Shown one piece after another: positions 5,407 through 35,255 of a stretch of 35,339 bases of DNA (its first letter is position 1; every line of letters begins with the position of its first letter). The stretch comes from Thermoplasmata archaeon (GTDB lineage: Archaea; Thermoplasmatota; SW-10-69-26; JACQPN01; JAJPHT01): assembly GCA_034667685.1 (NCBI GenBank), contig JAXDQU010000023.1, positions 1-35,339 on the forward strand. Direction: 5' to 3'. The notes beneath the pieces were generated by a model that did no database searches, was not told the DNA's origin, and saw only the letters and a program-made list of their open reading frames with translations. A program made the translations under genes and the position numbers.

Positions 5407-5458
5407 TTATATAAGGTCACGGCGGCAAACCAGGGGGCAGCGCCCAATCTCCTTAAGC
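5407..5458. promoter_or_regulatory. Divergent archaeal TATA boxes
   Basis: TTATATAA (5407-5414) and CTTAAG (~5452-5457) are AT-rich boxes in a GC-rich context, ~25-35 nt upstream of the two divergent starts. Confidence 0.55.
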
Positions 5459-9582: not shown

Positions 9583-9948
9583 CTAGAGGACGCGCTGCCT
9601 CAGCTTGCCGAGCCGGTCGGTCAGGACGGCCTGCAGCTCGCCGCGGAACGCCTCGAGGTCGCGCAACGGGCGGCGCGCGAGCCGGTCGATGCGGCGCGCG
9701 AGCGCGGGGTCGCCCAGCGTTCGCTCGACCCACGCCGCGTAGTCGGCGCGGTGGTGCGCGACGAGGTGCCCCGTCTTGGCGCCCACGGCGTGGTGCAGGT
9801 CGGCGAGGTCGCGCGCGCTGGTCCCGTCGGCGAAGCGGAACGCCTCGTCGCCCGCGCACGGCGTCAGCGCGCGGCGCGCGACGGTCTGCAGGTTCTTCGC
9901 CATGCCCGGCAGGGTGGCGAGGGACGGCTTGGCTTTGTCGGCAGGCAT
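9583..9948 (-). CDS. DUF5752-like small protein
   Basis: Pattern F.F.DG..A.DL.DL...H...DYA.WV...LGD..LA.RI resembles this family (from recall). Confidence 0.6.
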   Translation of the reverse strand: MPADKAKPSLATLPGMAKNLQTVARRALTPCAGDEAFRFADGTSARDLADLHHAVGAKTGHLVAHHRADYAAWVERTLGDPALARRIDRLARRPLRDLEAFRGELQAVLTDRLGKLRQRVL

Positions 9949-10017
9949 GCAGGCAGGAGCGATGGCACGATCCCGGGAGCGTCGCCTTCATGCGGCGGGG
10001 TCGGGCTGCGGCTCCTG

Positions 10018-12672: not shown

Positions 12673-12719
12673 CACAATCCACCACCATAACAGGCTTGAA
12701 CCCTGGGCGCCTTCCTCGG

Positions 12720-13211
12720 ATGACGACCATGCCAAGAGACCGGACCGTCGGGAGGGTCGTTGGGCACCTGGGGGCGGTCGTGGCGGTCTTGGCGGGCGCG
12801 ATCCTCGCCTATCAAGCGCTCATGCGGGAGCGGATCGGCGGAAGCCGGAGCGATATGATCTCCGGAGCGGGCCCGCCGACCTACGGCCAATCCGGCCCCT
12901 CGCTCCTGGCCCCCTTCTGGCTCTCCTTCATCCCCGCGGCGTTGTTCCTGGCGGTCGGCACCGCGTCCGCGCTCGTGGCCCACCGGACCGATTCGCCCCG
13001 GTTCTGGACGTGGCGCGTCATCCTTCTCCTCGTCGGTGGCGCGCTTGCCGGGTCGGCCCTCGTGGCTGCGCCGACCGGCTGGCTCTGGCCCTACGACACG
13101 CTCCTGCTGGTCGTCGGGCTCGCCCTGTACGTTCCCGCGCTCGTGCCGCTCGTCACCGGGCGCTTCTCCGGGGGCGACGACGGAACCGCCGCCCTGGGGT
13201 CCCGGAGCTGA
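12720..13211 (+). CDS. Hypothetical membrane protein (~4 TM)
   Basis: Four hydrophobic segments; ATG at 12720. Confidence 0.7.
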   Translation: MTTMPRDRTVGRVVGHLGAVVAVLAGAILAYQALMRERIGGSRSDMISGAGPPTYGQSGPSLLAPFWLSFIPAALFLAVGTASALVAHRTDSPRFWTWRVILLLVGGALAGSALVAAPTGWLWPYDTLLLVVGLALYVPALVPLVTGRFSGGDDGTAALGSRS

Positions 13212-13259
13212 GCCCCGCCGAGGGAGCCCTTAAATCCCAGGGCGGTGGAGATGGCCCGC

Positions 13260-13772
13260 ATGATGGTCACGAGCCACCTGCTTGCCGCGCTGCTGCTGGG
13301 GCTCGTCCTGACGCAGTGGCGCCGGCTCACGCCGCGCGACTGGGCGCTCGCCCTGGGCTTCGGCGTGGCGATCGACCTGGACCACCTGCTCCAGCTGCGC
13401 AGCTACGTCCTTGCGCACGGCGGCCTCTCGGCGAGCCTGCGCGGCGCGACGATCGTCCACTGGGGCGCCTCGTGGCAGGGCTTCATGCACACGCCGCTCG
13501 CGCTGATCCTCGTCGTGCCCGCGGTGTTCGTCTTCCGCAGCCTCGTCCCCGCGATCTTCTGGGGCCTGCACATGTTCCAGGACTTCGTGATCGCGCGCCA
13601 CTACGTCGTCTTCGGGAGCCCCACCGAGATGGCGATCGACGTCGCGCTCCTCGGGCTGGTCATCGCGGGCTTCTGGCTCGACCGCCGGCGCCAAGGCTCG
13701 GCGGATCCGCTGCTCTGGCACGCCGCGGCGCAGTTCGGCGCGAAGCCGCCCAAGGCTCAGCCAAGCGAGTAG
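13260..13772 (+). CDS. Membrane-bound metal-dependent hydrolase (YdjM-like)
   Basis: SH..., DLDH, FMHTP and LHMFQD His/Asp motifs in TM context; CTTAAAT box ~25 nt upstream; start may be 13251. Confidence 0.75.
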   Translation: MMVTSHLLAALLLGLVLTQWRRLTPRDWALALGFGVAIDLDHLLQLRSYVLAHGGLSASLRGATIVHWGASWQGFMHTPLALILVVPAVFVFRSLVPAIFWGLHMFQDFVIARHYVVFGSPTEMAIDVALLGLVIAGFWLDRRRQGSADPLLWHAAAQFGAKPPKAQPSE

Positions 13773-14851
13773 GTCAACGCGCGGCAGTAGGTGCTCCCGT
13801 ACGCGAGCCCGCGCGCCTCGACGGGCCGCGGATCGTACTGCTCGAATCGCCGGTCGCCCACGAGAAGGACCGCCGTCGCGGGGCGCCACTCCGCGAGCTT
13901 CGCGCGCAGCATCGCGCCGACGCGGTCGCTCCCCTGCCGGCTCTCGACGCGCAGCCCCCAGGGCGGGTTCGCGACCACCGTCGAGAGCCCCTCGGGCCGC
14001 GCGAGGTCCGCCACGTCGCCCTCGCGCCATGCGATGCGCGCCGCCGCCCGCGCGCCGTTCTGCCGCGCGCCGTTCAGGTGCCTCGCGTTCCGCTCGTGGC
14101 CCACGATCGGCGGGCCTTCGTCCAGCGCCTCGCAAGCGAGCGCATCGCGCGCCGATTGATACCGTTCTTCGTCGTGGAGCCGCAGCCGCGCGAAGGCCCA
14201 GTCCTGCCGCGCGAGGTTCACGGCCCGGCGCCGCGCGCGGAAGTCCGCCTCGATGGGAATCGTGCCCGAGCCGCACGTGGGATCGAGCAGGAGGCCGCCT
14301 TGCTCCAGCCAGCCCGACCAGGCCACCAGCGCGCTCGCGATGCACGCGTTGAGCGTGGCCGGATGCTGGTAGACGCGCCACGGCCGCTCGTGGAGCGACG
14401 CGCCGCTCGCGTTCACCGCCACGAACGCGTGCGCCCCGCGGACCTCGACGTGCACCTCCACGTCGGGCCGGTTGAGCCGCACGCGCGCGCCGGTGGCCTG
14501 CTGGATCGCGGCGCCCGCCGCGCGCTTGACGTCCTGGCTCGTCCACGCGTGCTCGCCCACGCGCAGGCACTCCACCGCGAACGAGAGGTCGGGCGCGAAC
14601 ACGCGCGTCCAGTCGACCTCGCGCGCCAGCCGCGCCACGTCCTCGGGCGCGTGGACCTCGCCCTCCGCGAGCACGAGATGGACGCGCGTCGCGGTGGGGT
14701 GCGCGAGGTTGAGCGCGTAGAGCAGGTCAGCATCGCCCTCGACGAGCGCGCGGCCCACGAGCGGCTCGGCCGACTTCGCGCCGAGGGCGAGCGCGTCCTG
14801 CGCGACGACCTGCTCCAGGCCTTCGTGGCAGGGGAGGAGGAAGCGGGTCAG
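13757..14851 (-). CDS. THUMP-domain tRNA guanine-N2 methyltransferase (Trm14/TrmN-like)
   Basis: THUMP region (V.L.RPD), SGASLHERPWR, LLDPTCGSGTIPIEA, VVANPPWG. The family-like N-terminus (LTRFLLPCHEGLE) extends to a CTG at 14851; first canonical start is GTG 14758. Confidence 0.88.
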   Translation of the reverse strand: MTRFLLPCHEGLEQVVAQDALALGAKSAEPLVGRALVEGDADLLYALNLAHPTATRVHLVLAEGEVHAPEDVARLAREVDWTRVFAPDLSFAVECLRVGEHAWTSQDVKRAAGAAIQQATGARVRLNRPDVEVHVEVRGAHAFVAVNASGASLHERPWRVYQHPATLNACIASALVAWSGWLEQGGLLLDPTCGSGTIPIEADFRARRRAVNLARQDWAFARLRLHDEERYQSARDALACEALDEGPPIVGHERNARHLNGARQNGARAAARIAWREGDVADLARPEGLSTVVANPPWGLRVESRQGSDRVGAMLRAKLAEWRPATAVLLVGDRRFEQYDPRPVEARGLAYGSTYCRALTYSLG

Positions 14852-16039
14852 CTACGCCCCGCCTCTGAGGATCTCCACCAGCTTCTCCTCCAGCACGCGC
14901 GCGGGGATGTCGGGGAGCGAGATCAGCGTCGTCGTGCCCACGACGCCCTTGCCGCTGCGCTTGGTGTGGATGAATCCCAGCGAGTCGAGGTCCTTGAGGA
15001 AGGTCCAGAACTGCGTGTGGGCGCGCGCCTTCTCGCCGAGCTCCTCGCAGGCCAATTGATAGCGCTCTTCGGCCTCTCCCGTCGTCGCGAACGCGCCCCC
15101 CTTCTTGAGGACGCGCGCGATGCCCAGGAGCGCGATGGCCTTGTGCTTCTCCAATTCCATGAGCTTCGTCTCGGTGACGAAGGGGTGGCTCTCCGCGGCG
15201 GCGGCGCGGATGTCCTCCGGGTCGACGTGGTCGCGGCCCACGTCCTCGGCGAGCTGGCCCGACTTCTGGAGCAATTCGATCGCGTAGCGCGCGTCGCCGT
15301 AGGGCGCGGCCGTGTCCGCCGCCAACTCCTCCAGCTCCTCGGGGAAGGCGTGTTTGTGGAAGGCGAGGTCGACGCGCTGGTGGATGATGCCCTTGAGCTG
15401 GTCCGCGTCGTAGCGCTCCAATTGCAGCGTGCCGGTGCGCTTGAAGGTGGACTGCGCGGCCTCGTCGAGCAGCGTGCGCGCGTCCTGCTGGCTGACCATG
15501 ATGAGGCTCACGCTGAACTTCGCCTTGCCGCTCTCCTCGTTGAAGCGGGTGAGGTTGTAGATCAGGTCGGAGCCGCTCTTCTTGAGGAGGATGTCCACCT
15601 CGTCGAGGATCACGATGAGGTGCGCCTCGGCGCGCTCCAGGCGCTTCTTGAGGATCTCCAGCATCTCGGCGTTGCTGAAGCCGCGGTCGGGGAAGCGCTC
15701 GTCGAAGTGCGTGAGGATCTTCAGCAGCGCGGCGCCTTCCGTGCTGCGGCGGCGGCAGTTGACGTCGGTGAACTCGATGTTGACGTTCTGCGCGCGCGCG
15801 ACGGACTTCAGGTCGCGGCAGAAGGCGCGGGAGAGCGCGGTCTTGCCGCTGCCCACGGGGCCCGTGATGAGGACGTGCTGCGCGGCGCCGCCCTGCAGCA
15901 AGGGCCGGAACTGCCGGGCGAGCTTCGCGATCTCCTCCTCGCGGCCCGGGAGCCGCTCGGGGACGTAATCGTAGGAGAGCTTGCCGGCGTCCTTGAAGAG
16001 CGACGGCCCCTCCATCTCGCCCGCGATGATGTCGCGCAT
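14852..16039 (-). CDS. cdc6: Orc1/Cdc6 family replication initiation protein
   Basis: LSYDYVPERLPGRE, Walker A GPVGSGKT, VNC, Walker B VILDEVD, GDARYAIELL, C-terminal winged helix. Confidence 0.95.
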   Translation of the reverse strand: MRDIIAGEMEGPSLFKDAGKLSYDYVPERLPGREEEIAKLARQFRPLLQGGAAQHVLITGPVGSGKTALSRAFCRDLKSVARAQNVNIEFTDVNCRRRSTEGAALLKILTHFDERFPDRGFSNAEMLEILKKRLERAEAHLIVILDEVDILLKKSGSDLIYNLTRFNEESGKAKFSVSLIMVSQQDARTLLDEAAQSTFKRTGTLQLERYDADQLKGIIHQRVDLAFHKHAFPEELEELAADTAAPYGDARYAIELLQKSGQLAEDVGRDHVDPEDIRAAAAESHPFVTETKLMELEKHKAIALLGIARVLKKGGAFATTGEAEERYQLACEELGEKARAHTQFWTFLKDLDSLGFIHTKRSGKGVVGTTTLISLPDIPARVLEEKLVEILRGGA

Positions 16040-16111
16040 GCTGCCTCGCAAGCGGCAGCGCCGGAAGAAGGTTTCGTAGTTTCGGCGCACGTGGGACGAA
16101 AGTTGGCGGCC

Positions 16112-17296
16112 TCAGGCGCGGCGGCCCCGCGCGAGCAGCGCCGCCAACGCCAGGACGCCCAGGCCCAGCGCGAGGCCCGGGCCGGGCACGACGTAGGTCC
16201 CCGTCTTGAGGTCCTTGAGGACGATCGGGGGCAGGTCGCCGTTGGCGTTGTCGATCGTGAGCGTGTCGCCGGCCGAGACCTTGCCGTCGTGGTCGTTGTC
16301 CGCGAACGCCAGCGTGAGGCCGTCCTGCGTCTTCGGGCTCTGGTCGAGCGTCATGCTCCACGCCGTCGTCATCGTCGGGTAGTCCGGGAACGAGAAGCCG
16401 GCCGGGCCCGACGAGGAGTCCGAGGGCTGCTTGACCTCGATCGAGACGTCGGAGAGCGAGCGCACGGGGGCGCCCTTGAACGTCCAGACCTGGTGCGAGG
16501 TGTTCGTGGCGCCGCTCTTCTCGTAGAGGAGGCCCAGCGCGTCCTTGGCCGCCGCGGGGATCGCGGGCACCTGGCTGTCGTAGAGGAAGTCCGCGCGCAC
16601 GGAGGCGCCGGACGTGGGGTCGGCCTGCGCGTTGGCCCGGGTGGGCATCGTCGTCTCCAGGTGGCAGAGGCGCGGGGGCTGCGTCGTGAGCAGGTCGGCC
16701 ACGGCCACGTTGGACTGGCTCTGCACCGTGTGGTTGAACGTGACGCGCACGGCGGACTGGCCCGCGCAGGTCGTGGGCTCGACGCTCTGCACCTTCACCT
16801 GGTCGCCTTCGAGGTACGCGAGCGCGGAGCCGCCCGAGAGGAACGGCGCGAGGCCGCTGCCGCGCGCCTGGTTGAGCAGGAGCGACGACTGGCCCGACGC
16901 GTTCTCCGGGGGCAGGACGAGCGAGGTCGAGGGGCCCGAGGCGACGATGCCGTTGGGGCCCTTGTAGACCGTGAGCGACGAGAAGGGGAGCGACCCGGTG
17001 GGCGAGAGGCGGCCCACGAGACCGCCGCCGACCTCGAGGTAGGCCTCCTTCGTGTCGTTGAGGTACGTCGCGTTGGAGGTGGCCACGAGGTCCGTGCCCT
17101 TCCAGAACTGGATGGCGACGTGGAACCGGTCGGGGGGCGACTGGAGGGCGCTCGCGAGCATCGCCTGCGCCGAATCCGCGGTGAGCGTGGAGCCGGGAGG
17201 CGTCTGCGAGCCGGGCGTGCCACCGTTGTTGCCCGTGCAGCCCGCGAGGAGGATGGCCCCCGCCACGAGGGCGAGGAGAAGGGAGCGCGACATCAT
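16112..17296 (-). CDS. Surface lipoprotein with C-terminal PGF-CTERM-like sorting signal
   Basis: LLAGC lipobox; DNDHDGKVSAGD Ca-binding-like loop; C-terminus VPGPG + TM + RGRRA. Confidence 0.8.
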   Translation of the reverse strand: MMSRSLLLALVAGAILLAGCTGNNGGTPGSQTPPGSTLTADSAQAMLASALQSPPDRFHVAIQFWKGTDLVATSNATYLNDTKEAYLEVGGGLVGRLSPTGSLPFSSLTVYKGPNGIVASGPSTSLVLPPENASGQSSLLLNQARGSGLAPFLSGGSALAYLEGDQVKVQSVEPTTCAGQSAVRVTFNHTVQSQSNVAVADLLTTQPPRLCHLETTMPTRANAQADPTSGASVRADFLYDSQVPAIPAAAKDALGLLYEKSGATNTSHQVWTFKGAPVRSLSDVSIEVKQPSDSSSGPAGFSFPDYPTMTTAWSMTLDQSPKTQDGLTLAFADNDHDGKVSAGDTLTIDNANGDLPPIVLKDLKTGTYVVPGPGLALGLGVLALAALLARGRRA

Positions 17297-17319
17297 CCGC
17301 ACCAGGGGCGAGTTCGGTT

Positions 17320-18444
17320 TCAAGATTGCGGATGTCCTCTTGAAGCCCGGCGCGCCAGCGCGGCGGGGTCGTGCCCCAGGTCCGCGAGCGTGGCGCGCGT
17401 CTCGCCCTCGACGAGGAGCGGCGCGTGCGCCAGGTCCGCGGCGCGGGGCACGCCAGCGAGGAAGCATGCCGTGCGCAGCTCCAGCTTCAGCTGCCCGCCG
17501 AACGCGATTGCGGCCTCCGGGCTCGCGTTGGCCGCGCGCAGGAACGCGCTCGCGAAGCCCGCCAGCGTCGCGCCCAGCCCGAGCGCGCGCGCCGCGTCAA
17601 GCCCGCTGCGCAGGCCGCCCGTCGCGACGATCGGGAGCCCGACCTGCGCCTCCAGCACGGAGGCGGGCGTGGGGATGCCCCAGTCGCGGAAGAGCGCGCC
17701 CACGCGCTCGCGGTCGACGCGCCCCTCGGCCTGCGCGCGGAACGCCTCGACCGCGGCGAACGTGGTGCCCGAGAGCCCTCCGACGTCGAGCGCGGCGACG
17801 CCCGCCTGCGCGAGCGCCTGCGCCGTGCCGCGCGAGAGCCCCGCGCCGGTCTCCTTGGCGATGACGGGGACGCCCAGGTCCTGCGCGAGGTCGCGGATCG
17901 CGGCGCGCACGCCCCGGCTGGCGAGGTCGCCCTCGGGCTGCACGGCCTCCTGGAGCGGGTTGAGGTGCACGATCAGCGCGTCCGCGTCGAGCATCTTCAC
18001 CAGCTCGTCGATCTGCGCGCGGGAGAGCGCCGCGCGCTGCCCCTGCGGGATCAGCTGCGGCGCGCCGATGTTCGCGCACAGGAACGGCAGGTCGTGGTCG
18101 CGCACCACGGTGAACGTGCGCCGGGCCTCCGGTGATAGCAAGGCCGCGCGCTGCGAGCCCACGCCCATCGCCAGGCCGTGCGCGGCGGCCGCGGCGGCGA
18201 GGTTGCCGTTGATGCGCTCCGCGTCGGGGTAGCCGCCGGTCATCGAGGCGACCATGATCGGCGCCTCCAGCTGCGCGTGCAGGAAGCGCGCGCGCAGGTC
18301 CACGGCGGGCAGGTCGACGTCGGGCGCCGCGTCGTGGAGCAGCCTGATATCATCCCAGGCGTTGCGCCGCGCGCGGACGTCCTCGCGCAGGATGATGTCC
18401 ACGTGCTCCTGCTTGCGGCTGCGCGTCTGCTCGGGCTCGCCCAT
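17320..18444 (-). CDS. fni: Type 2 isopentenyl-diphosphate delta-isomerase
   Basis: RKQEH, SMTGG, MGVGSQR, NIGAPQL, HLNPLQEAVQPEGD, KETGAG, GGLSGT, WGIPT, TGGLRSGLD. Confidence 0.96.
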   Translation of the reverse strand: MGEPEQTRSRKQEHVDIILREDVRARRNAWDDIRLLHDAAPDVDLPAVDLRARFLHAQLEAPIMVASMTGGYPDAERINGNLAAAAAAHGLAMGVGSQRAALLSPEARRTFTVVRDHDLPFLCANIGAPQLIPQGQRAALSRAQIDELVKMLDADALIVHLNPLQEAVQPEGDLASRGVRAAIRDLAQDLGVPVIAKETGAGLSRGTAQALAQAGVAALDVGGLSGTTFAAVEAFRAQAEGRVDRERVGALFRDWGIPTPASVLEAQVGLPIVATGGLRSGLDAARALGLGATLAGFASAFLRAANASPEAAIAFGGQLKLELRTACFLAGVPRAADLAHAPLLVEGETRATLADLGHDPAALARRASRGHPQS

Positions 18445-25832: not shown

Positions 25833-27293
25833 TCAGCCCACGAGCCGAATGAGCGGCGGCACCACGATGGGCAGCAGGATCAGCGCGAGGATGAAGAGGC
25901 CGATGCCGGTCGTCGTGCGGCGCACCTGCCGCTGCACGAGGTCGAGCTTGGCCTGCGTCTCCTCGTCCTTGCCCTTGACCTTGAGCACGCCCATCTCCTC
26001 GCGCTCCACGCTCAGGCGCGCCTTGTCGACGCCCGCGCGGCGCATGAGGCGGTCCGAGAGCGTGGCGCGGAACATCTGGCCGCCGTCCAGCGGACCCGCG
26101 GGCAGCGCGTTGAACGTGCCGAGCATGAGGTTGATCCACACGATCCAGTAGAGCAGCGTGGCGATGCCGAAGAACACCGGCGCGCCCAGCGCGGCCAACG
26201 GCCCGTGGATGGTGTAGAGCGCGTTGAACGGCGGCGCCATGAGGTCGATGCCGCTGCCGAAGACGAAGAACGGATAGCCCACGTAGAAGCCGAACGCCAG
26301 GAGGCTGCCGAAGGGGTGACGGAGCCAGTCGGCGCGCTGCGCGAGCGTGCCCACGTCGATGCCCGCCACGCCGAGGAATCCCTTGCCCTTGTTGTCGGGC
26401 GTGTTGGCCGAGGGCTGCGCCTTCTGCACGTAGTCATACTTGTCCGTGAGGATCGGCGTCGCGCTGAGCGCCTTCCCGTCGCGCAGGAACGCGACCTGGA
26501 TGGCCTGGCCCGCGTGCGTGCCGTTCATCACCGTCGTGTAGTCGTCGCGCGTGGTGATATCAACGCCGTTGACCTTGGTCAGGACGTCGCCCGGACGCAG
26601 CCCCGCGGCCTCCGCGCCGCTGCCGGGCTCGACGCTGCCCACGACCACGCCGTGGCCGTCGTTGACGAACGTGAGCGAGCCCAGGAACGCGAACGCGAGC
26701 AGCGAGCCCGCGACGAGCGCGAGGACGAGGTTGCTCGTGGGCCCCGCGGCGAACACGCGGTTCTTCTCGCGGGTCGTGGCGCGCAGCAGGTCCTCCTCGT
26801 CGGGCTCCACGAACGCGCCCACCGGGATGACCAGCACGAGCAGGCCCAGCGCCTTGACGCGCATGCGGCCCACGTACGCCATGACGCCGTGGCTCCCCTC
26901 GTGGATCACGAGCGCGACGAGCAGCGCCACGAGGCCGTAGCCCACCGGGATGAGCGGGTTGACGCCCGGGATGCCCAGCAGGAACTCGGGCGCCGGCGCG
27001 TTGGCGGCGGCCTGGCGCGGCGCGCTCACGTACTGCCACAGGCTCGCCACGAGCAGCACGAAGACGAGCACGCCCACGATCCACGTCACGACGATGCCCA
27101 CGTCGGCGACGATCTCCCAGAAGCGGCGCGGCGTCGCGACCTTCTGGATCGCCTTCTTGCCGAACTGCGTGCGCCAGAATAGGAACGGCCCATTGAGCTC
27201 GAAGCCCCCCTTGAGCGGGCCGCGCGTGCGCAGGAACAGCACGAGCAGCGCGTACGCCACGACGAGGCCGAGGAAGACGAGCCAGCCGTTCAT
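25833..27293 (-). CDS. Site-2 protease (M50) with PDZ domain
   Basis: HEGSH (HExxH), GAFVEP, AGPTSN, PDZ (AGLRPGDVL), FNALPAGPLDGG. Confidence 0.94.
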   Translation of the reverse strand: MNGWLVFLGLVVAYALLVLFLRTRGPLKGGFELNGPFLFWRTQFGKKAIQKVATPRRFWEIVADVGIVVTWIVGVLVFVLLVASLWQYVSAPRQAAANAPAPEFLLGIPGVNPLIPVGYGLVALLVALVIHEGSHGVMAYVGRMRVKALGLLVLVIPVGAFVEPDEEDLLRATTREKNRVFAAGPTSNLVLALVAGSLLAFAFLGSLTFVNDGHGVVVGSVEPGSGAEAAGLRPGDVLTKVNGVDITTRDDYTTVMNGTHAGQAIQVAFLRDGKALSATPILTDKYDYVQKAQPSANTPDNKGKGFLGVAGIDVGTLAQRADWLRHPFGSLLAFGFYVGYPFFVFGSGIDLMAPPFNALYTIHGPLAALGAPVFFGIATLLYWIVWINLMLGTFNALPAGPLDGGQMFRATLSDRLMRRAGVDKARLSVEREEMGVLKVKGKDEETQAKLDLVQRQVRRTTTGIGLFILALILLPIVVPPLIRLVG

Positions 27294-27344
27294 GGACGGC
27301 GAGGACTCGGCCCCTCTTCATTTAAGGGTTGCCGGATCGGACGG

Positions 27345-27986
27345 TCAGAGCCCGACGACGCGCAGCCCTTCGAGCCCGCGCCGCACCAGGTCCTCGATCT
27401 CGACACGCCCCTCCTCCTTCTGCACGCGCTCGTAGGCCGCGCCGGTGCTCGGGTTGGAGGGGCCCAGCACGTCGCACAGCTCGGGGCCCTTGCTGATCTC
27501 GTACGTCCCCCAGCCGCGCGCCAGGTCGATGATGTCCACCTTGTCGTAGGCGAGCAGCGGGCGCAGCACGGGCAGGGGCGCGGCGCGGTCGATGCTCGCC
27601 AGGTTGGTCAACGTCTGGCTGCTCACCTGGCCGAGGTTCTCGCCCGTGGCGATCGCCACGCAGCCAAGCTGGGGCGCCAACGCGCCGGCGATGCGCGCCA
27701 TGAGGCGTTTCGATAGCACGAAGTAGAGCCGGTCGTCCGCGCGCTTCACCAGCTCGCCGAAGAGCGGCCCCGCGGGGACCACGTGCAGGCGCGCCAGGCC
27801 CAGCGCCTTGGCGAGCGCCTTCGCCTTCTCCTCGCCGCCCGCGTCGGTGAACGGCTCCAGCGAGAAGTGCACGGCCTCCAGCTCCACGCCCTGCTCCTGG
27901 AGGAGCTTGCCCGCGACGGGCGAGTCGATGCCGCCGCTCAGGAGCAGGAGCGCCTTGGCCTTCAGGGGCGGCGCGAGGAGGGTCAC
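27345..27986 (-). CDS. thiI: ThiI-like PP-loop sulfurtransferase, catalytic domain only
   Basis: LLSGGIDSPVA, TGENLGQVSSQTL, RPL..DK..I; 213 aa with no N-terminal NFLD/THUMP; own TTTATC box ~25 nt upstream. Confidence 0.85.
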   Translation of the reverse strand: MTLLAPPLKAKALLLLSGGIDSPVAGKLLQEQGVELEAVHFSLEPFTDAGGEEKAKALAKALGLARLHVVPAGPLFGELVKRADDRLYFVLSKRLMARIAGALAPQLGCVAIATGENLGQVSSQTLTNLASIDRAAPLPVLRPLLAYDKVDIIDLARGWGTYEISKGPELCDVLGPSNPSTGAAYERVQKEEGRVEIEDLVRRGLEGLRVVGL

Positions 27987-28027
27987 GCGGCGCGCTGAGG
28001 CGTCCGCCACGATAAAGCTGCGCGCGG

Positions 28028-29278
28028 CTACGCGAGGGCCCTCGGCGCCAGGAGCGTGGGGATCGTGGGCTCCGAGACGCGCAGCAGCGCGTGCCCGATA
28101 CCGGCGATGCCCGTCAGGAGCGAGAGGCTGGGGTGGTAGAAGACGCCCGTGGGCCATCCGGAGAGCCCGGCCACGTCCGCGTCCTGTCCTGCGAAGCGCT
28201 CCACCTGCTCGTCCACCCAGCGGCGCACGGCGGCCAGCGCGCGCTCGTCGCCCAGGTCGCGCGCCATCTCGAAGGCACAGTCGGCCAGGCCCAGCCCGCC
28301 GTGGCAGAGCGTGAGGTCGGAGCCGGGCGCGTCGCCGAAGCGCTGGAGCGCGTCGAGCGTGGTGCGCAGCGCGACGCGCACCTCGGCCTGCGTCCTGGCG
28401 TCGCGGACCGACATGCGCGCGCGGGCGAGGCCGATGCCGGGCGCGCCGTGGCACCAGGCCGTGGCGCAGATCCGCCGCGCGCCGGGGCGCAGGGCTCGCA
28501 GGTCGCGCCAGTTCTGCTGCTCCTCGTCGAAGTGCTCGCGCTCGTAGGCCACCGCGGCGCGCGCCGTCTCCTCGTAACGCGCCTCGCCGGTGAGGCGGCC
28601 GAGCTGGTCGAGCGCGAGCGCGATCCCGGCGTTGCCGTGGCTCAGCCCCGTGAGGTGCATGAGGTTGTCCCCGCCGCCGTTGGACCACGAGGCCGTCTCG
28701 CCGCGCACGCGCGCGTCCGCCACGAGCGCGTCGCCCACCTCGCCGGCCAGGCGCGCCGAGCCTTCGTGGCCGCGGTGCGCGAGGTCGGTGAGCGCGAGCA
28801 GCGTCCCGGCGCGGCCGGTGATGAGGTCGTCGCGCTCCCACGGGACGGATTTCGATCGCACCTCGTCGAGCAGGCCGATGGCGTTGCGCCGCAGGTCGGC
28901 CGCGCCGTGCGCGTCGGCGATGCGGTGGGCCGCCCAGCAGGTTCCGACGTTCCCGGCGTAGAATCCCCAATGCAGCATGGCGTTCCCGGCGCGCACGCGG
29001 GCGCGGGCCACGCGCAGGGCGTAGGTCGCGGCGGCGATGGCCGTGCGCTCCGCGTCGGGGTCGCGCAGGGCGATCGCGACGTCCGAGAGGAAGAGCGCGA
29101 CGCCGGCGGCGCCGTCGTAGATCCAGGGGCCCAGGGCCCGGCTGGAGGCGAAGGGGAGGCTCGACGTGCCCACCTCGGGGACGACGGGGCCGACCCACGT
29201 GCACTCGCCGCGCGCCCAGATGGCGGAGCCCACGAGGAGCCCGGCCAGGTGCGCGACCTCGTCGCGGGCGCCCGTCAT
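28028..29278 (-). CDS. Stand-alone lanthionine cyclase (LanC-like)
   Basis: YDGAAG, DLITGRAG, GLSHGNAG (catalytic His), NWRDLR, AWCHGAPG and LCHG (Zn ligands), LLTGIAGIG..LLR; ATGA overlap with the upstream gene. Confidence 0.92.
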   Translation of the reverse strand: MTGARDEVAHLAGLLVGSAIWARGECTWVGPVVPEVGTSSLPFASSRALGPWIYDGAAGVALFLSDVAIALRDPDAERTAIAAATYALRVARARVRAGNAMLHWGFYAGNVGTCWAAHRIADAHGAADLRRNAIGLLDEVRSKSVPWERDDLITGRAGTLLALTDLAHRGHEGSARLAGEVGDALVADARVRGETASWSNGGGDNLMHLTGLSHGNAGIALALDQLGRLTGEARYEETARAAVAYEREHFDEEQQNWRDLRALRPGARRICATAWCHGAPGIGLARARMSVRDARTQAEVRVALRTTLDALQRFGDAPGSDLTLCHGGLGLADCAFEMARDLGDERALAAVRRWVDEQVERFAGQDADVAGLSGWPTGVFYHPSLSLLTGIAGIGHALLRVSEPTIPTLLAPRALA

Positions 29279-30204
29279 GGCGCGCCCTCCTGGAACGGGT
29301 CAGGGCCCTGCGAGTCGCACAGGTAGGGCGCCTCGATGGACAGGTTGGCGGCGGCGAAGCTCGCGGCGAGGGCGGCGGGCAGATCCTCGCCCGTGGCGCG
29401 GGCGCGGTCGATGCCGGCGGCGAGCGCGCGGCACGTGACGATGCCGAAGCTCTCGTGGCTGCGCGGGCTGAGCGCGAGCCCCGTGCCGTGCGCCAGCGGG
29501 AAGGTGAAGAGCGGCTGCCAGGGGCGCAGGTGGCGCCGAACGTCGCGCGAGGCCGCGAGGATCGCCTCCCGCGCGGGCTTCCAGCTGCTCCTCGGGACGT
29601 ACACGACCACGGCGTCGGCGCGCGTGTACGCGACGGGATCGGAGAGGCATTTCATCGTGAACTCGGCCCCCGCGTTGCGCAGCGCGCCCCACGTGGCGCG
29701 CACGACGTCGGTCACGCCCTGCGCCGAGGCGTTCAGGTAGACGCGGACCACGCCTTCCCCCGGGCGCGGGCCCCCGTCGCTGCCGAAGAGGAAGAACCAG
29801 CCCGGCGAGACGCCGGCCGTGAGCGCGCGGCGGCGCACGAGCACCGCGTCGCCTTCGCGGCGGATCTCGTCGGGCGCGGGGCGCAGCACCTCGCCGTTCA
29901 CGAGGAACGCGTGGCCGCCGCGGCCGGGGAGCGGGAATCCGGGCTGCCAGCTCGCGCTCTGGTCGAACTCCGCCTTCAGGCGAAGGAAGAGGCGCTCGTT
30001 GGCCAGCGGGTCCCGCGCGGTGGGCGCGCCGGGGATCGTCTGGAACGCGGTGCAGTACGCGCGCCGGTAGAGGTGATCCGCGAGCCGCTCCGCGAAGGGG
30101 CGGGGGTCGTCGGGGGCCGCGTGGGGGACGGGCGCCTCGGCGATGGCCACGTGGTCGTCCTGGAGCGCGACGACGCGCAGCAGCGAGGAGATCGAGGCGT
30201 GCAT
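29275..30204 (-). CDS. HopA1-like phospho-Ser/Thr lyase (LanY-like)
   Basis: RVYLN, F.MKCL.DP..Y.RADAVVVY, PLFT.PLA.G.G.A..P...ESFG...C motifs; context between kinase and cyclase. Confidence 0.82.
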   Translation of the reverse strand: MHASISSLLRVVALQDDHVAIAEAPVPHAAPDDPRPFAERLADHLYRRAYCTAFQTIPGAPTARDPLANERLFLRLKAEFDQSASWQPGFPLPGRGGHAFLVNGEVLRPAPDEIRREGDAVLVRRRALTAGVSPGWFFLFGSDGGPRPGEGVVRVYLNASAQGVTDVVRATWGALRNAGAEFTMKCLSDPVAYTRADAVVVYVPRSSWKPAREAILAASRDVRRHLRPWQPLFTFPLAHGTGLALSPRSHESFGIVTCRALAAGIDRARATGEDLPAALAASFAAANLSIEAPYLCDSQGPDPFQEGAP

Positions 30205-30207
30205 GGG

Positions 30208-31335
30208 TCACTCCAGCGCGACGCCGAGCGCGCCGCGCATCCAGGCCGCGGGGTCGCGCACGGCGTCGCGGCACCACGCCAGCGCGACCTCGCCCATGAG
30301 GTTCGTCCGCTCGCCGGGGCGCATCATGCGGATGGAGGACTGCTCCCAGGCGATCATCGCGAGGATCGTGGGGACGTAGCGCGCGGCGCGGCGCTCGTGC
30401 TCGCGGCGCTGGGCGGGCGTGAGCCCGCGCGCGGCCGCGTACGCGTCGAGGAAGGCGCGGGCATTCTCCGCGGGACGGATCGCGCGCAGCGTCTCGTGGA
30501 CGTCCTGGGCGGCGACGAGGTTGCGCGCGCCGGCCACGACGAGGGAGAACCGCGCGTACTCCGCGAGGTAACAGGCCACGTCGTAGGCCTGGTCGCCCAC
30601 GAGGGCCAGCTCCCAGTCGATGAGGCGCGTCGCGAACTCGCGCTCGTCGTCGGCGGGCGTCACGAGGACGTTGTCCCAGCGGATGTCGCCGTGCACAAGG
30701 TCGTCGCGCTCCTGCCAGAGCGACGTGAGGGCCGGCAGGAGGGCGAGGACGCCCGTCTCCTCCAGCGCGTCGAGGAACTCGTGCGTCACCTCGCGCGAGC
30801 TCACCCCGGCTTCGAGCGCGGCGGTCATCATGCGCAGCGCGAGGGGACGCTCGGCTGCGGGGTCGGGGCGCGGGGCGGAGGCGGCGACCGGGCCGCGCGC
30901 GCCGTGGAGGTCGCCCAGCAGGGCGCCGGTGATGAGCCCCGCCGACGCGGAGAACTGGACATCGCCCAGGTTCAGGTGGTACTTGGTGAGCGTGGTCGCG
31001 GGGTGGATCAGCCGCGTGACGATGACGCGCTGCTCGGGGTCGAAGTCCACGAGCGCGGGCAGGCTGGGCCAAGCGCGCGCGAAGCGATGGTCCTGCTCGA
31101 GCGACCGGAGGATCATGGCCTCGCGGGCGGTGGCGTCCCCCTCCGCCGACTTGGCCTGCTTGACCAGGAGGCCGGTCCCGTCGCCGAACGTGATGCGCAG
31201 GTTGCGGTTGCGGCGCGAGCGGTCCTCGACCTCGAGGTCCGGCGCGTCCAGGACCTCCATGCCACCCAGGACGCCGCGCGCCATGAGGTAGGGGATGACG
31301 TTGGCTGCGTGCAGCTCGAATGCCGGCTTGGGCAC
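30208..31335 (-). CDS. APH/phosphotransferase-family Ser/Thr kinase (LanK-like)
   Basis: L...NV.PYL N-terminus, SRRNRN, LLVKQ (ATP Lys), LVHGDIRWDNVL, LIDWE...GD.AYD; GTG start 8 nt after GGAGG. Confidence 0.88.
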   Translation of the reverse strand: MPKPAFELHAANVIPYLMARGVLGGMEVLDAPDLEVEDRSRRNRNLRITFGDGTGLLVKQAKSAEGDATAREAMILRSLEQDHRFARAWPSLPALVDFDPEQRVIVTRLIHPATTLTKYHLNLGDVQFSASAGLITGALLGDLHGARGPVAASAPRPDPAAERPLALRMMTAALEAGVSSREVTHEFLDALEETGVLALLPALTSLWQERDDLVHGDIRWDNVLVTPADDEREFATRLIDWELALVGDQAYDVACYLAEYARFSLVVAGARNLVAAQDVHETLRAIRPAENARAFLDAYAAARGLTPAQRREHERRAARYVPTILAMIAWEQSSIRMMRPGERTNLMGEVALAWCRDAVRDPAAWMRGALGVALE

Positions 31336-31405
31336 GGCTCTGCCTCCTCGCGGCGGTGCCAAGGGCCCAACCCGTCGAGAACCTTTGCATGGCTGGGACG
31401 ACCGT

Positions 31406-31435
31406 AGAAAGAGAAGAGGGCCCCGCCGCGCGGGG
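31406..31435 (-). terminator. Hairpin plus pyrimidine tract downstream of the precursor gene
   Basis: CCCCGC-3nt-GCGGGG (31421-31435) followed on the minus strand by CCCTCTTCTCTTTCT. Confidence 0.5.
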
Positions 31436-31447
31436 TGGACGGACGGA

Positions 31448-31645
31448 TCAGCAGAAGAAGATCGTGCAGGTGCACGACTGGCCCGTGCCGCTGATGGGCG
31501 GCGGACAGATGCCCGTCCCCTGCGAGCACTGGTGGGTGGGGCACGTGGGGGAGACCGCCTCGGCGGGGCGCGACGCGCGGCCGAAGACGGCGGTAGGGCT
31601 GGTCTTGTCCATCGTCAGAATCTGGTTCGCACTGAGCTTCGTCAT
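31448..31645 (-). CDS. RiPP (lanthipeptide) precursor peptide, 65 aa
   Basis: MTKLSANQILTMDKTSPTAVFGRASRPAEAVSPTCPTHQCSQGTGICPPPISGTGQSCTCTIFFC; GGAGG (31655-31659) 9 nt before the ATG; Cys-free N-half, and 6 Cys + 10 Ser/Thr in residues 31-65; first gene of the modification operon. Confidence 0.87.
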   Translation of the reverse strand: MTKLSANQILTMDKTSPTAVFGRASRPAEAVSPTCPTHQCSQGTGICPPPISGTGQSCTCTIFFC

Positions 31646-31762
31646 GGTCTGAAGCCTCCATTCATGGTGTCGGCCGCGGAGCGGCCGCGCTTGCCGCGAA
31701 GCGCAGGGTCGAGCATGTAACTTGCGGCGCGCGGGGGGCGCGTCCGTGCGGGCCAAGCCATT

Positions 31763-32839
31763 ATGAGGACTCGCGAGGGTGACCTTTCGCGAGGAGGCAC
31801 GAGGCTGGCGTCCCACGACGACGTCGTCATCCGCGCGGAGGACCTCTCCTTCCGCTATCGCAGCGCGCGCCCCGAGGCGCCGCCCGCGCTCGAGGACATC
31901 TCCTTCCACGTGCGGCGGGGCGAGGTCTTCGGCATCCTCGGCCCCAACGGCGCCGGCAAGACGACGCTCATCAAGATGATCAGCACCATCCTCCTCCCGC
32001 AGGCGGGACGCCTGGACGTGCTGGGGCACGCGCTCCCCGCGGGCGAGCAGCAGGTGCGGCTGAGGCTGGGCGTGTGCCTCGCGGAGTCGGAGCGCGCCTT
32101 CGCGTGGCGCCTGACGGGCCGGCAGAACCTGGCGTACGCCGCGGCGTTCTTCCGCCTGGACCGGCGCGAGGCGGAGCGGCGCATCGACGAGCTGCTCGCG
32201 ATGCTCGGGCTGCGCGAGCACGCCGACAAGCTCTTCCAGGAGTACTCGACGGGCCTGAAGCACCGCCTGGCCCTGGCGCGCGCGCTCCTGCCGCGCCCCG
32301 ACCTCCTCGTCCTCGACGAGCCCACCGCGGGCCTCGACGTCCGCAGCAGCCACGAGCTGGCCGAGACGCTGCGCCGGCTCGCCGCGGGCGGCGTCACCAT
32401 CGTCTACACCACGCACCGGCTCGAGGAGGCCGCCGCGCTCTGCGACCGCGTCCTCGTGGTGCGGGAAGGACGCCTGGCGGCGGTCGCGGCGCCCACCGAG
32501 CTGGCGCGCCTCGTCCAGCAGGCCCGCGTCGTGGAGGTCGCGCTGGAGGGCGTGGTCCCCGCGTCCTACGCCGAGCTTCCGGGGCGCGGCACCGTGTCGC
32601 GCGCGGAGCTGACGGGCCGCTCCTCGCTGCGCCTCCAGTGCGGCGACGTCGACGCGGCGCTGGGCGAGGTCCTGGCGTGGGCGCGCGCCGAGCGCGTCGG
32701 GATCGCTTCCGTCGCCTCCACGGGCCCCACGCTGGTCGACGCGTTCGTCGCCATCACCGAGGGGCGCCTCCAGACCCTTCCCGCCGGGCCGCCCGCGCGC
32801 CCCCGCGTCGAGTTCACCCTCGTGGAGGCGCGCCGGTGA
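31763..32839 (+). CDS. ABC-2 type exporter ATP-binding subunit
   Basis: GPNGAGKTT, YSTG signature variant, LVLDEPTAGLD, TTH; the start may instead be CTG 31805 after GGAGG. Confidence 0.93.
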   Translation: MRTREGDLSRGGTRLASHDDVVIRAEDLSFRYRSARPEAPPALEDISFHVRRGEVFGILGPNGAGKTTLIKMISTILLPQAGRLDVLGHALPAGEQQVRLRLGVCLAESERAFAWRLTGRQNLAYAAAFFRLDRREAERRIDELLAMLGLREHADKLFQEYSTGLKHRLALARALLPRPDLLVLDEPTAGLDVRSSHELAETLRRLAAGGVTIVYTTHRLEEAAALCDRVLVVREGRLAAVAAPTELARLVQQARVVEVALEGVVPASYAELPGRGTVSRAELTGRSSLRLQCGDVDAALGEVLAWARAERVGIASVASTGPTLVDAFVAITEGRLQTLPAGPPARPRVEFTLVEARR

Positions 32840-33828
32840 AGCCCCGCGCGCCGCAGGCCGCGGGCGCGGCGCTGGCCGCGGCGCTGCTCGTCGTCGCCTT
32901 CCTCCTCCCCGGGGGCGCGCGGCGCTGGCTCGCGCCCCTGGCCGTCATCGCGCTGGGCGCGGGGCTCGTCTACGCCCTCGGCGGGGGGCGGAGCGTCCTG
33001 CGCATCGGGAACGCCATGATGCGGCGCAACTGGCTCACGATGGTGAGCTACCGCATGCAGATCGTGGCCTTCGCCGTGTACGTCGCGCTGGGCCTGGCCC
33101 TGATCTGGCTGGTGGGCAAGCCCGTCCTCGACGCGCTGGTCGGGCCCGCCCAGCTCCTCCACGGCGCGGGGCTTCCGCCCGACGCGGCCTTGCTCCTGAT
33201 CGTGGGCGTGGTCTCGTGGCCGCTCTTCTGGCGCTCCTGTGAGGTCACCGCCAACGGCGTGCGCCAGGAGCAGTGGTCGGGCACCTTCGAGTCCATCGTC
33301 CCGACGCCCGACGGCGTGCGCGCGCTCCCGTTCTGCTATCTCTACAGCAACGTGGGGGTCAGCATCCTTTCGCAGGCCGCGATCCTGGTCCTTCTCGGCT
33401 TCGCGCTCCCCGCGGGCAGCCTCCACCTGGTCGACCCCGCGCTGGCCCTCAACTTCCTCGCGGTGACGTTCGTCTGCATGCTTTGCATGTGGGGGCTCGG
33501 GCTCCTCTTCGGCGGGCTCGCCGTGCTCTACAAGCAGCTCGGCCCCGCGGACGCCGTCGTCAAGCTGCTCTTCATCGCGCTGGCCGGGATCTTCGTCCCG
33601 CTGCAGCTCCTGCCGGGCTGGATGCAGGCGGCGTCCCGCGCGATCCCGGTGACGTACGCGCTGGACCTGCTTCGGGGCATCGCGGTGGACGGACGGGGCA
33701 TCGCGGACCAGCCGGTGGCCTTCGCCATCCTCGTGGGCTTCACCGTGGCCACGGTCGTCGCGGGGAACCTGGCCTATCGCGCGCTCGTGGACCGCGCGCG
33801 GCGGCAGGGCGCGATCCAGGGGTACTGA
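32836..33828 (+). CDS. ABC-2 type exporter permease
   Basis: GTGA overlap with the ATPase stop, GGAGG upstream; EQWSGTFE..P, G.FVP...LPGW.Q..S..IP.TY....R motifs; multiple TM helices. Confidence 0.9.
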   Translation: MKPRAPQAAGAALAAALLVVAFLLPGGARRWLAPLAVIALGAGLVYALGGGRSVLRIGNAMMRRNWLTMVSYRMQIVAFAVYVALGLALIWLVGKPVLDALVGPAQLLHGAGLPPDAALLLIVGVVSWPLFWRSCEVTANGVRQEQWSGTFESIVPTPDGVRALPFCYLYSNVGVSILSQAAILVLLGFALPAGSLHLVDPALALNFLAVTFVCMLCMWGLGLLFGGLAVLYKQLGPADAVVKLLFIALAGIFVPLQLLPGWMQAASRAIPVTYALDLLRGIAVDGRGIADQPVAFAILVGFTVATVVAGNLAYRALVDRARRQGAIQGY

Positions 33829-33835
33829 GCGCTCC

Positions 33836-33961
33836 TCAGCTCTTCTTCGTCCCCTTGATCTGCGTCCAGTCGAAGTATTTCCCGCACTTCTTGCAGCGCC
33901 ACTTGTTCGCGATCACGAAGACGACCGCGCGTTCGCCGCAGGCCGGGCAGGTCTCGACCAC
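33836..33961 (-). CDS. Small zinc-ribbon protein (41 aa)
   Basis: MVETCPACGERAVVFVIANKWRCKKCGKYFDWTQIKGTKKS; GTG start with GGAG upstream. Confidence 0.65.
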   Translation of the reverse strand: MVETCPACGERAVVFVIANKWRCKKCGKYFDWTQIKGTKKS

Positions 33962-34008
33962 GTCTTGCCGCTCCGGGTGGCTTGCACGGCCTCGCCGGGC
34001 ATAAGGCT

Positions 34009-34500
34009 TCACGAAGGCCGAGCCGGGACGCCCAGCACGAGCACCTGGAAGCGGATCTCGCCGCTCTGCTGCGAGAAGGAGACGCGCTGGTGGCCGTGCG
34101 GCGCGGGGACGCAGTCGAACGCGAGCGTCTGGCCTTGCGCCGCGACGTCGCCGAACGAGTAGGAGCACGCGCCCGGGCCGGTGGCGCGCAGGCCGACGCT
34201 GGCGCCCGAGAGGGGCGTGACGAGCACGCGCACCGCGCTGAGGTTCGCCGGGAGGTCGGCGTCGAGCGAGGCCGTGGCGTTCACGGGACCGACGTTGGGC
34301 AGGCCCAGCGAGAGCGTGCCGTTGGCGAGCGCGTAGGGGGCGGCCGGCGCGGGCGCGGCCGTGGGCGCCGGCGCGAGGGCCGCGGTGGCGAGCGTGGCGG
34401 CGGGCGCGACGGGCGCGTCGGCGAGCAGCGCCAGCACGGCCAGGCCCAGGAGGACGCCCACGAGGAACGCGCCTGCGATGCCCAAGACGAGCCTGCGCAT
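34009..34500 (-). CDS. Hypothetical exported or membrane-anchored protein
   Basis: N-terminal MRR + hydrophobic helix, Ala/Pro linker, beta-rich domain with a Cys pair. Confidence 0.65.
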   Translation of the reverse strand: MRRLVLGIAGAFLVGVLLGLAVLALLADAPVAPAATLATAALAPAPTAAPAPAAPYALANGTLSLGLPNVGPVNATASLDADLPANLSAVRVLVTPLSGASVGLRATGPGACSYSFGDVAAQGQTLAFDCVPAPHGHQRVSFSQQSGEIRFQVLVLGVPARPS

Positions 34501-34550
34501 GGGGCGCAGGGATGCGCGAGGGGGGCTTCACGCTTGTGGCGGGCGCCGCG

Positions 34551-35255
34551 TCAGGTGCTCTCGTCGGCCGCGCCGCGGTAGAAGCGCCGGTAGAGGCGCC
34601 CCCAGAACGGGTTCGGGAAGAACGTCAGGATGGGCACCGCGACGCAGATGACGAAGCCCGCCGCGGGGCTGACCATCGCGACGGCGAGCGCGAGGGCGAA
34701 GAGGATCGGCGCCACGGCGAAGGCGACGCTCGTGCCCCGGAAGATGCGGCGGTCGAAGACGGGGTTGATCATGAGCGGGTCGCGCGTCGCGTAGAGCAGC
34801 ATCTGGAGGAGCGCCAGGCCGCAGAGGATCAGGTCGACGCAGTAGAGCGCGATCGCCAGCCGGTCGCCGGAGAACTTGCCCAGGTACGTCGTCGTGAACG
34901 GCACGAGGCTCACGAAGAGCAGGTAGACGACGGTGGTGACCATGAGCGGGCGGTCGCTGCGCACGATGTAGTGGAACACGATGGCGTGCGCGACCCAGTA
35001 GGAGCCCAGCAGCACGAAGCTCATGGCGTACACCAGCAGCGGCGTGGAGAACGTGCCCCAGAACTGGGCGGGCGTCTCGGCGCGCTCGGGCATGCTCGAG
35101 AGGAGCGAGAAGGCCAGCAGCGTCATCGCGATGCTGAACACGCCGTCCGAGAGGCTCTTGATGCGCGAGTTGTCGCTGTAGTGCGCCTGGTCGTCGAGCT
35201 CCACGACCCGCTCGGGAATGTGCGGGCGGTTGCGCATCACGCGCGACTCGGCCAT
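34551..35255 (-). CDS. TMEM175 family potassium channel
   Basis: R...LSDGVFSIAMTLL signature; YW..H; L.FVSLVPFTT; 6 TM helices. Confidence 0.9.
   Translation of the reverse strand: MAESRVMRNRPHIPERVVELDDQAHYSDNSRIKSLSDGVFSIAMTLLAFSLLSSMPERAETPAQFWGTFSTPLLVYAMSFVLLGSYWVAHAIVFHYIVRSDRPLMVTTVVYLLFVSLVPFTTTYLGKFSGDRLAIALYCVDLILCGLALLQMLLYATRDPLMINPVFDRRIFRGTSVAFAVAPILFALALAVAMVSPAAGFVICVAVPILTFFPNPFWGRLYRRFYRGAADEST

Follow-up and report, generated by a model that had tools for sequence, protein, structure and literature searches.

The window, as the whole stretch of DNA analysed here is called, comprises 35,339 nucleotides (contig JAXDQU010000023.1, positions 1 to 35,339, of the Thermoplasmata archaeon assembly GCA_034667685.1). 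The gene under study, designated LanA, is a short open reading frame (ORF) that very likely encodes a lanthipeptide precursor. It is followed on the same strand by LanK, LanY and LanC, in this order, and is adjoined by a divergent pair of genes for an ATP-binding cassette (ABC) exporter. These are exactly the six genes of a 5.8-kb island (28028-33828), whose features are listed below (E, expect value; GC3, G+C content at third codon positions).

31448..31645, minus strand: LanA precursor ORF (translation; GC3 0.92; directly upstream of LanK; co-fold with LanK and LanY)
31655..31659, minus strand: Shine-Dalgarno sequence GGAGG, 9 nt before the LanA ATG (31645..31643)
30208..31362, minus strand: LanK, stand-alone APH-fold Ser/Thr kinase (PF01636, E 1.1e-9, 38.8 bits, cut-off 23.2)
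29275..30204, minus strand: LanY, stand-alone HopA1-type phosphoSer/phosphoThr lyase (PF17914, E 2.1e-25)
28028..29278, minus strand: LanC, stand-alone zinc cyclase (PF05147, E 3.4e-46; TIGR03897, C-terminal part, 207.7 bits)
31763..32839, plus strand: ABC transporter ATPase, DrrA-like, inside the island (PF00005, E 2.7e-29; TIGR01188, 229.7 bits)
32836..33828, plus strand: ABC-2 type permease, partner of the ATPase, with GGAGG before its GTG start (PF01061, E 1.3e-9, in an overlapping long frame; TIGR01247, E 4.4e-6)

Translation of window positions 31645..31448 on the minus strand gives 65 residues and a stop codon: MTKLSANQILTMDKTSPTAVFGRASRPAEAVSPTCPTHQCSQGTGICPPPISGTGQSCTCTIFFC. In the ORF list this gene appears solely as the tail of a 322-aa ORF with a GTG start (31448..32416, minus strand), which crosses the ABC ATPase gene (31763-32839) in antisense orientation. 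The 3' end of the 16S rRNA of the same genome reads ...GATCACCTCCT, and its CCTCC pairs exactly with the GGAGG ahead of LanA. Residues 1-30, the putative leader, contain no Cys and no Tyr and end in R-P-A-E-A, and residues 31-65, the putative core, contain six Cys (one of them C-terminal) and ten Ser/Thr, with two G-T-G tripeptides flanking PPP. The first-pass annotation, made from the sequence alone, had described such a frame hidden in the 322-aa ORF and preceded by a GGAGG, with a Cys-free leader and a core of two GTG modules around PPP, and all of these elements were found in the translation, the ORF list and the sequence.

Coding signal and predicted docking of the leader on LanK

The window has a G+C content of 70.5%, a composition that often gives rise to long spurious frames with much Arg, Ser, Cys and Pro. 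By codon position, G+C in the 65 LanA codons is 0.45/0.64/0.92, compared with 0.93/0.51/0.74 in the remainder of the 322-aa ORF, and GC3 in the genes adjoining LanA is 0.96-0.98. To gauge chance, the stop-to-stop frames of the whole genome that reach 40 aa were counted (38,081); in 20 of them the last 35 residues hold at least six Cys and at least ten Ser/Thr, and LanA is the one of these 20 that lies directly upstream of a LanK gene. It has no Arg in these 35 residues, whereas the other 19 have 3-13, and it was the sole frame of the entire set to pass the Cys and Ser/Thr counts with at most one Arg.

Co-folding of the leader with the kinase and the lyase, which the first-pass annotation had proposed, gave models in which LanA residues 1-22 are placed on LanK. 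LanK, LanY (a seven-row alignment for each) and the LanA peptide were folded together in three runs, which scored 0.57, 0.69 and 0.68 (median 0.68), and the best of three controls scored 0.00. The mark applied to these scores is reached by 116 of 157 solved complexes and by 2 of 215 mismatched pairs, a calibration that is only rough for three chains with custom alignments. At least 29% of the contacts were common to the runs, with a partner predicted local distance difference test score (pLDDT) of at least 38. Confident contacts joined LanA residues 1-6, 9-13, 15-18 and 20-22 to LanK residues 121-133, 234-243 and 275-280; the pairs with the least predicted error involved I9, M12 and D13 of LanA against LanK 121-132 and 234-236, and P121, A122, T123 and L125 of LanK at this interface are invariant in seven kinases. 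No confident contact between LanA and LanY was listed in the co-fold, and the core was not confidently placed. We know of no solved complex of the LanK family, so that the pass is unlikely to come from a memorised structure. A similar arrangement, with the leader on the kinase rather than on the lyase and a mobile core, is described in the available part of PMC9486802 for an AlphaFold-Multimer model of CaoA-CaoK-CaoY, which the LanA-LanK co-fold mirrors.

Considering its position upstream of genes for a kinase, a HopA1-type lyase and LanC, its coding-type GC3 and the co-fold, LanA is very likely a real and easily missed gene for a lanthipeptide precursor, as the first-pass annotation had claimed, and its assignment to class Vb is a prediction of the same strength, expression aside.

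Enzymes, class assignment and the island

The ORF list starts LanK at TTG 31362; translation more probably begins at GTG 31335, which has a GGAGG ahead of it. The phosphotransfer motif of LanK (H224, D226, N231 and D249) is invariant across seven paralogues, as are R154, K185 and R195 of LanY. In LanC, H214 (SHG) and W275-C276-H277-G278 (WCHG) are invariant, and C325 is followed by H326 (LCHG) in the window copy; we take H214, C276, C325 and H326 to be the zinc ligands and the active-site His, by analogy with NisC. The best NCBIfam match of LanC is the cyclase part of LanM. The spacing of R154, K185 and R195 in LanY matches that of the CaoY active-site residues R187, K219 and R229 given in the available part of PMC9486802, an equivalence drawn by spacing and not by alignment. 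GGAGG stands 7-9 nt ahead of the starts of LanA, LanK (GTG 31335), LanC and the permease, and GGAG precedes LanY. The stretch that separates LanA from LanK (31336-31450, minus strand) folds no more stably than shuffled sequences (z +1.31) and so gives no indication of a terminator or attenuator. The divergent ABC pair likely has a role in export or self-protection.

Class V lanthipeptides are described as depending on a stand-alone LanK (PF01636) and LanY (PF17914), to which subgroup Va adds LanD and LanX and no LanC, and subgroup Vb a dedicated LanC (available parts of PMC11186320, PMC12291118 and PMC12328550). Pfam and NCBIfam searches of the six island genes found no flavoprotein (LanD) and no second APH match (LanX). 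As LanC is present and LanD and LanX are absent from the island, the cluster is of class Vb type. The original work on SmoA, a class Vb system, is reportedly that of Pei et al. (2022, J Am Chem Soc 144:17549). In the available parts of PMC11186320, PMC12291118 and PMC12328550, mSmoA of Streptomyces, which is stapled by two overlapping rings and one C-terminal ring, figures as the sole characterised Vb member as of 2024. The window cluster resembles the SmoA system in its separate APH-type kinase, HopA1-type lyase and LanC, the absence of LanD and LanX and the short precursor with a core rich in Cys, Ser and Thr, and differs from it in having a Thermoplasmatota archaeon rather than an actinobacterium as host and six Cys in the core, a comparison drawn from published descriptions, of which the SmoA sequence was not part.

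With class Va (cacaoidin CaoA/CaoK/CaoY, lexapeptide and pristinin, as far as covered in the available part of PMC9486802), the cluster shares dehydration by LanK and LanY, a leader predicted on the kinase and the Arg-Lys-Arg spacing of the lyase; unlike class Va, it has LanC and neither LanD nor LanX, and aminovinyl-methylcysteine (AviMeCys) is not expected. Type-A leaders of class Va are characterised in the same part of that paper by a fully conserved Tyr-17, a Glu/Asp-12 followed by a hydrophobic residue, and an Ala-3/Pro-2 end. LanA does not fit this CaoA-like pattern, having neither a Tyr in residues 1-30 nor the Ala-3/Pro-2 end. Haloarchaea make class II lanthipeptides (archalans among them; PMC12144867), likewise a case of lanthipeptide biosynthesis in Archaea, but they use a fused LanM, whereas the window has a split kinase, lyase and cyclase in a non-halophilic soil lineage.

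The host is a soil Thermoplasmatota archaeon with a genome of 3.48 Mb (124 contigs, 99% complete). Its 16S rRNA gene fits the archaeal model (1498 bits) better than the bacterial one (1086 bits) and is followed by a tRNA gene and an archaeal 23S rRNA gene, and the contig with this operon (C89) also holds a second LanK-LanY-LanC locus (L020). By tblastn synteny, the island is missing at the same site in two genomes of the same genus (G001 and G002), in both of which the gene after ThiI is a homologue of window 33836-34531. Since ThiI lies directly beside this homologue there, 28028-33828 represents an insertion. Both junctions of the island are bridged by difference-free contigs in two DNA runs, each possibly the source of this DNA; the two runs tile 27300-34600 with identical contigs, which offer no variants for judging selection. 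One contig of a run (X1) joins 28107 to 34026, skipping 5918 bases, with a shorter side of 22 letters; this joint is off the island borders (28028/33828), and an assembly artefact or DNA of a different organism may account for it.

Gene order beside the island is kept in relatives by tblastn (AA-kinase, SpoU, M50-PDZ and ThiI in another same-genus genome, G003; SpoU, M50-PDZ and ThiI in G001 and G002), and no lan genes lie beside the conserved SpoU/M50/ThiI block in these three genomes. Two candidates from this flank were rejected: the ThiI-like PP-loop gene (27345-27989) as a tailoring enzyme, because it has matches in all 13 genomes searched, the host included, and the M50-PDZ peptidase (25833-27293) as the leader peptidase, because it belongs to a conserved housekeeping synteny without lan genes in relatives. 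The ThiI homologue (27345-27989, minus strand) has 214 aa, consists of the PP-loop domain with no THUMP, and is the only strong PF02568 match in the host genome (the second match scores 29 bits). The public record behind G003 (L027, L029, L030 and L033) names a bacterial phylum; the genome belongs to the same genus as the archaeal host, and the record looks mislabelled. Elsewhere in the window, two giant ORFs were observed, one of 1886 aa (12572-18232, plus strand) with no Pfam match and one of 1357 aa (1374-5447, minus strand) with fn3 and Ig-like domains.

Related loci and alternative explanations

A survey that covered 301 genomes from the phylum (214 with a completeness of 90% or more) found PF17914 in three of the 301, at seven loci: two in the host (the window and L020), four in G003 (L021-L024) and one in a genome of another family (L025 in G246). 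The triad of APH kinase, HopA1-type lyase and LanC is present at all seven. The first-pass annotation had proposed looking for short ORFs next to homologous kinases, and Cys-bearing ones were found beside LanK at every one of these archaeal loci (one in the window, four at L020, six at L021, two at L022, one at L023, two at L024 and one at L025). The sister LanK copies are 31-38% identical to the window copy, and all seven form one group with a Shimodaira-Hasegawa-like approximate likelihood-ratio (SH-aLRT) support of 99 in a quick maximum-likelihood tree of 51 rows, from which 16 of 67 rows were left out (below 100 bits on the LanK profile) and which does not settle their bacterial neighbours.

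The 16 sister peptides share a leader motif, roughly L-(K/S/T)-x-x-(D/E)-(I/V)-(E/D)-x-(I/L/M)-(E/D)-x-(T/A)-(S/P), and score 23.8-32.3 bits against their own profile; the motif profile recovered one unseeded peptide of the six at L021 (27.5 bits). Two more peptides, of the core type of L024, were found on a short metagenome contig (L057); both cluster with the L024-type peptide by BLAST, and one is scored weakly by the leader profile (6.3 bits). The sister loci are thus like the window in their triad, their single LanK clade and their precursors beside LanK, and unlike it in their leaders, which carry a strong motif such as D-I-E-x-(I/L/M)-E where LanA has Q-I-L-T-M-D, and in their cores, which are unrelated to that of LanA.

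Several features of these loci were observed in passing. At L020 (G000:C89:38000-54000, about 9600-10110), the four precursors are 32-38 aa long, and their cores, of the T-G-C-Y-(F/L/V) type, hold two Cys or one; three are encoded upstream of LanK and on the same strand as it, and the fourth, encoded on the other strand, overlaps LanK at its listed 5' end. L021 (G003:C39:67000-83000) is the largest sister cluster, with six precursors of 68-119 aa that have very Cys-rich cores, an M50-like membrane protease and, directly after the precursor genes, two genes for luciferase-like monooxygenases (PF00296). In class Va pathways, F420-dependent reductases make D-amino acids. The L021 cluster is followed by a tandem array of five genes for small secreted proteins, which have a conserved T-S-T-C-I-N-P at their ends (14166-15619). 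The M50-like genes of two sister clusters are 34% identical to each other (E 7e-70) and unrelated to the M50 gene of the window by BLASTP (E 0.45). In two of the seven LanC copies (L020:6710-7792 and L024:6358-7449), L-C-C-G replaces L-C-H-G at the second zinc motif, resulting in a three-Cys ligand set that presumably resembles the 'CCG' group of LanM cyclases.

Beyond the archaea, a number of bacterial LanK loci (L038, L039, L040, L044, L063, L071, L072, L077/L078 and L111/L113; mostly Solirubrobacterales-titled or metagenomic) contain, about 2-3 kb downstream of LanK, a frame with a conserved C-terminal part, whose length of 120-310 aa is counted between stop codons. In the conserved part, ...(D)VIWV... 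is followed by R-F-L-T-G-D-F-T-R-A-G-D-F and a short Cys-bearing end (C...CC), and the members at L077 and L039 have no NCBIfam match. The RFLTGDFT-type frame may represent a long-leader precursor type of bacterial class Vb clusters.

The interpretation preferred here, with a probability of about 0.8, is that LanA is the precursor of a class Vb-type pathway whose genes reached a soil Thermoplasmatota archaeon on an acquired 5.8-kb island. A number of results weigh against it. No evidence of transcription, translation or a product was found, and no RNA run is listed. A word-based protein search found no homologue of LanA; phmmer against 1.84 billion representatives returned one hit, a BACON-repeat surface protein, which is compositional only; the small frames around 102 additional LanK loci (L031-L132, from genomes and metagenomes) contained no match, and in the host genome and 40 relatives all E values were above 0.01. 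LanA also escapes a profile built from the bacterial RFLTGDFT-type precursors, and a leave-one-out profile of 15 sister leaders gives it 1.5 bits, rank 403 among 54,784 genome frames. No leader peptidase gene is present among the six genes of the island, and the co-fold is a model only, with custom alignments and a pLDDT of about 40 for the peptide itself. The lack of a peptide homologue and of expression data would also suit an untranslated frame, in which the 198 bases form the 5' untranslated region of a LanK-LanY-LanC transcript and the richness in Cys, Ser and Thr is an accident of 70% G+C, and spurious frames of this kind do arise often at high GC, as the 20 of 38,081 that share the counts given in the first-pass annotation illustrate. 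This explanation appears very improbable, because GC3 is 0.92 in LanA, compared with 0.74 in the part of the 322-aa frame that lies upstream of it, GGAGG stands 9 nt from the ATG, the 19 other frames are Arg-rich and LanA has no Arg, the co-fold passes its controls, and the LanKYC triad would be left without a substrate, at least one precursor being present at all six sister loci. Only slightly more credible is that the peptide is made but the island is a decaying or silent acquisition, with no mature lanthipeptide in the archaeon. The insertion is recent, being absent from the same site in two same-genus genomes, and the island encodes no leader peptidase, whereas two sister clusters hold an M50-like gene; however, all six genes are open, the zinc ligands, the kinase motif and the Arg/Lys/Arg of the lyase are intact, and GC3 of every island gene equals that of host housekeeping genes (0.96-0.97), the precursor ORF having 0.92.

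A further possibility would refine the preferred interpretation of LanA as a class Vb precursor rather than replace it, namely that its leader belongs to the sister leader family (hydrophobic-x-x-hydrophobic-acidic followed by T/A and S/P) as a divergent form in which two acidic residues have been lost; the odds lean somewhat against this. In a MAFFT alignment with 15 sister leaders, LanA residues 4-18 fall in register with their motif, and the closest-looking ones (L021) match LanA at the same places (L, S, A, T, S and V). BLASTP also pairs the N-termini of LanA and L058:2371-2601 in register (16.2 bits, E 0.024 in a single comparison); the latter, a metagenomic precursor, lies directly upstream of another LanK, has a GTG start at 2353 preceded by AGGAAAGG, and begins like LanA. 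The window LanK falls inside the archaeal LanK group, and I9, M12 and D13, which belong to the motif, make the most confident co-fold contacts with invariant LanK residues. On the other hand, the 1.5 bits of LanA contrast with 27.8-30.9 bits for the four L020 precursors on the same profile, profiles built from the closest-looking sister leaders only give no in-register match, and a 'strict' pattern that selects just LanA and L058/L059 was written after seeing both and is circular. The leader alignment proposed in the first-pass annotation therefore yielded an in-register placement by eye and failed in the profile test, and membership of the LanA leader in the sister family is at present unproven.

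The first-pass annotation had also placed the leader outside the double-Gly, FNLD and Nif11 types, which agrees with the finding of no Pfam and no NCBIfam family for the peptide, precursor models such as Nif11 and NHLP included, and of no FNLD or double-Gly motif by reading (no F-N/D-L-D/N and no GG or GA at the leader end). Its suggestion of a new precursor family was overstated: the enzyme system is the class Vb already published (available parts of PMC11186320 and PMC12291118), and the peptide is a singleton. It had recognised neither the archaeal host nor the insertion of the cluster as an island. LanK proteins of the further loci are at most 39% identical to the window LanK over a best aligned segment of at least 170 residues, and higher identities (41-77%) are confined to short pieces or low-scoring matches. 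A search for related loci from a single LanY protein gave 108 pattern matches, none of which was confirmed, and an all-against-all BLAST of Cys-bearing small frames produced mostly high-GC noise, with one cluster of 1430 frames.

Predicted pathway and significance

The pathway proposed for LanA as a class Vb precursor is predicted at every step from the enzyme families. The leader (about residues 1-22, centred on I9, M12 and D13) would dock on the conserved LanK surface, and LanK would phosphorylate Ser/Thr of the core (residues 31-65). The HopA1-type LanY would then eliminate phosphate to give dehydroalanine or dehydrobutyrine, and the zinc LanC would add the six Cys thiols to form (methyl)lanthionine rings. 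The leader would be removed by a protease encoded outside the island, with cleavage placed tentatively after A30 (AEA), and the product would be exported, or the producer protected, by the divergent ABC-2 transporter. One L022 peptide has G-P-E-A ahead of its first Cys region, and the LanA leader ends in R-P-A-E-A.

A Ser or Thr lies 3 or 4 residues upstream of every Cys (in core numbering S2-C5, T7-C10, T14-C17, T24-C28, S27-C30 and T31-C35), so that up to six small rings in a chain would be sterically possible. Among shuffled cores, 1168 of 200,000 had Ser/Thr at -3 or -4 of all six Cys, a statistic that was chosen after looking. Six rings would leave up to four further dehydro residues, and any ring pattern or stereochemistry assigned to the product would be putative.

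An archaeal survey of peptides made on ribosomes and modified after translation (RiPPs; PMC12144867) reports class II lanthipeptides only in haloarchaea (Halobacteria), and the terms 'class V', 'HopA1' and 'LanK' are absent from its text; the available part of its supplement contains at least three 'lanthipeptide-class-v' rows, all from Nitrososphaeria genomes among the rows listed. No paper on an archaeal class V cluster was present among the literature matches listed (title and beginning of abstract), and no paper on such a cluster was found for Thermoplasmatota lanthipeptides, as judged by title. The novelty of LanA lies in its sequence and its host; the enzyme machinery is already known and not new in kind.

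A broader scenario, which is for the moment doubtful, is that soil Thermoplasmatota took up a bacterial class Vb cassette once and then developed it into a lineage-specific toolkit of seven loci and at least 17 precursors in three genomes, with a leader code of its own (an N-terminal hydrophobic-x-x-hydrophobic-acidic helix that would dock on the conserved H-P-A-T-T-L surface of LanK), in which LanA would combine a re-coded leader at the same site with a new two-module core of up to six small thioether rings. The demonstrated archaeal lanthipeptides so far are class II products of haloarchaea only, and if this scenario is true, the cluster would represent the first lanthipeptide chemistry of class V type in Archaea and the first outside haloarchaea. 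A split pathway with an orphan six-Cys precursor in Thermoplasmatota would widen the host range of class V, and the window cluster would provide a compact four-gene case for heterologous expression. In addition, the occurrence within one lineage of seven kinase paralogues whose leaders have diverged would offer a natural experiment on how LanK reads its leaders.

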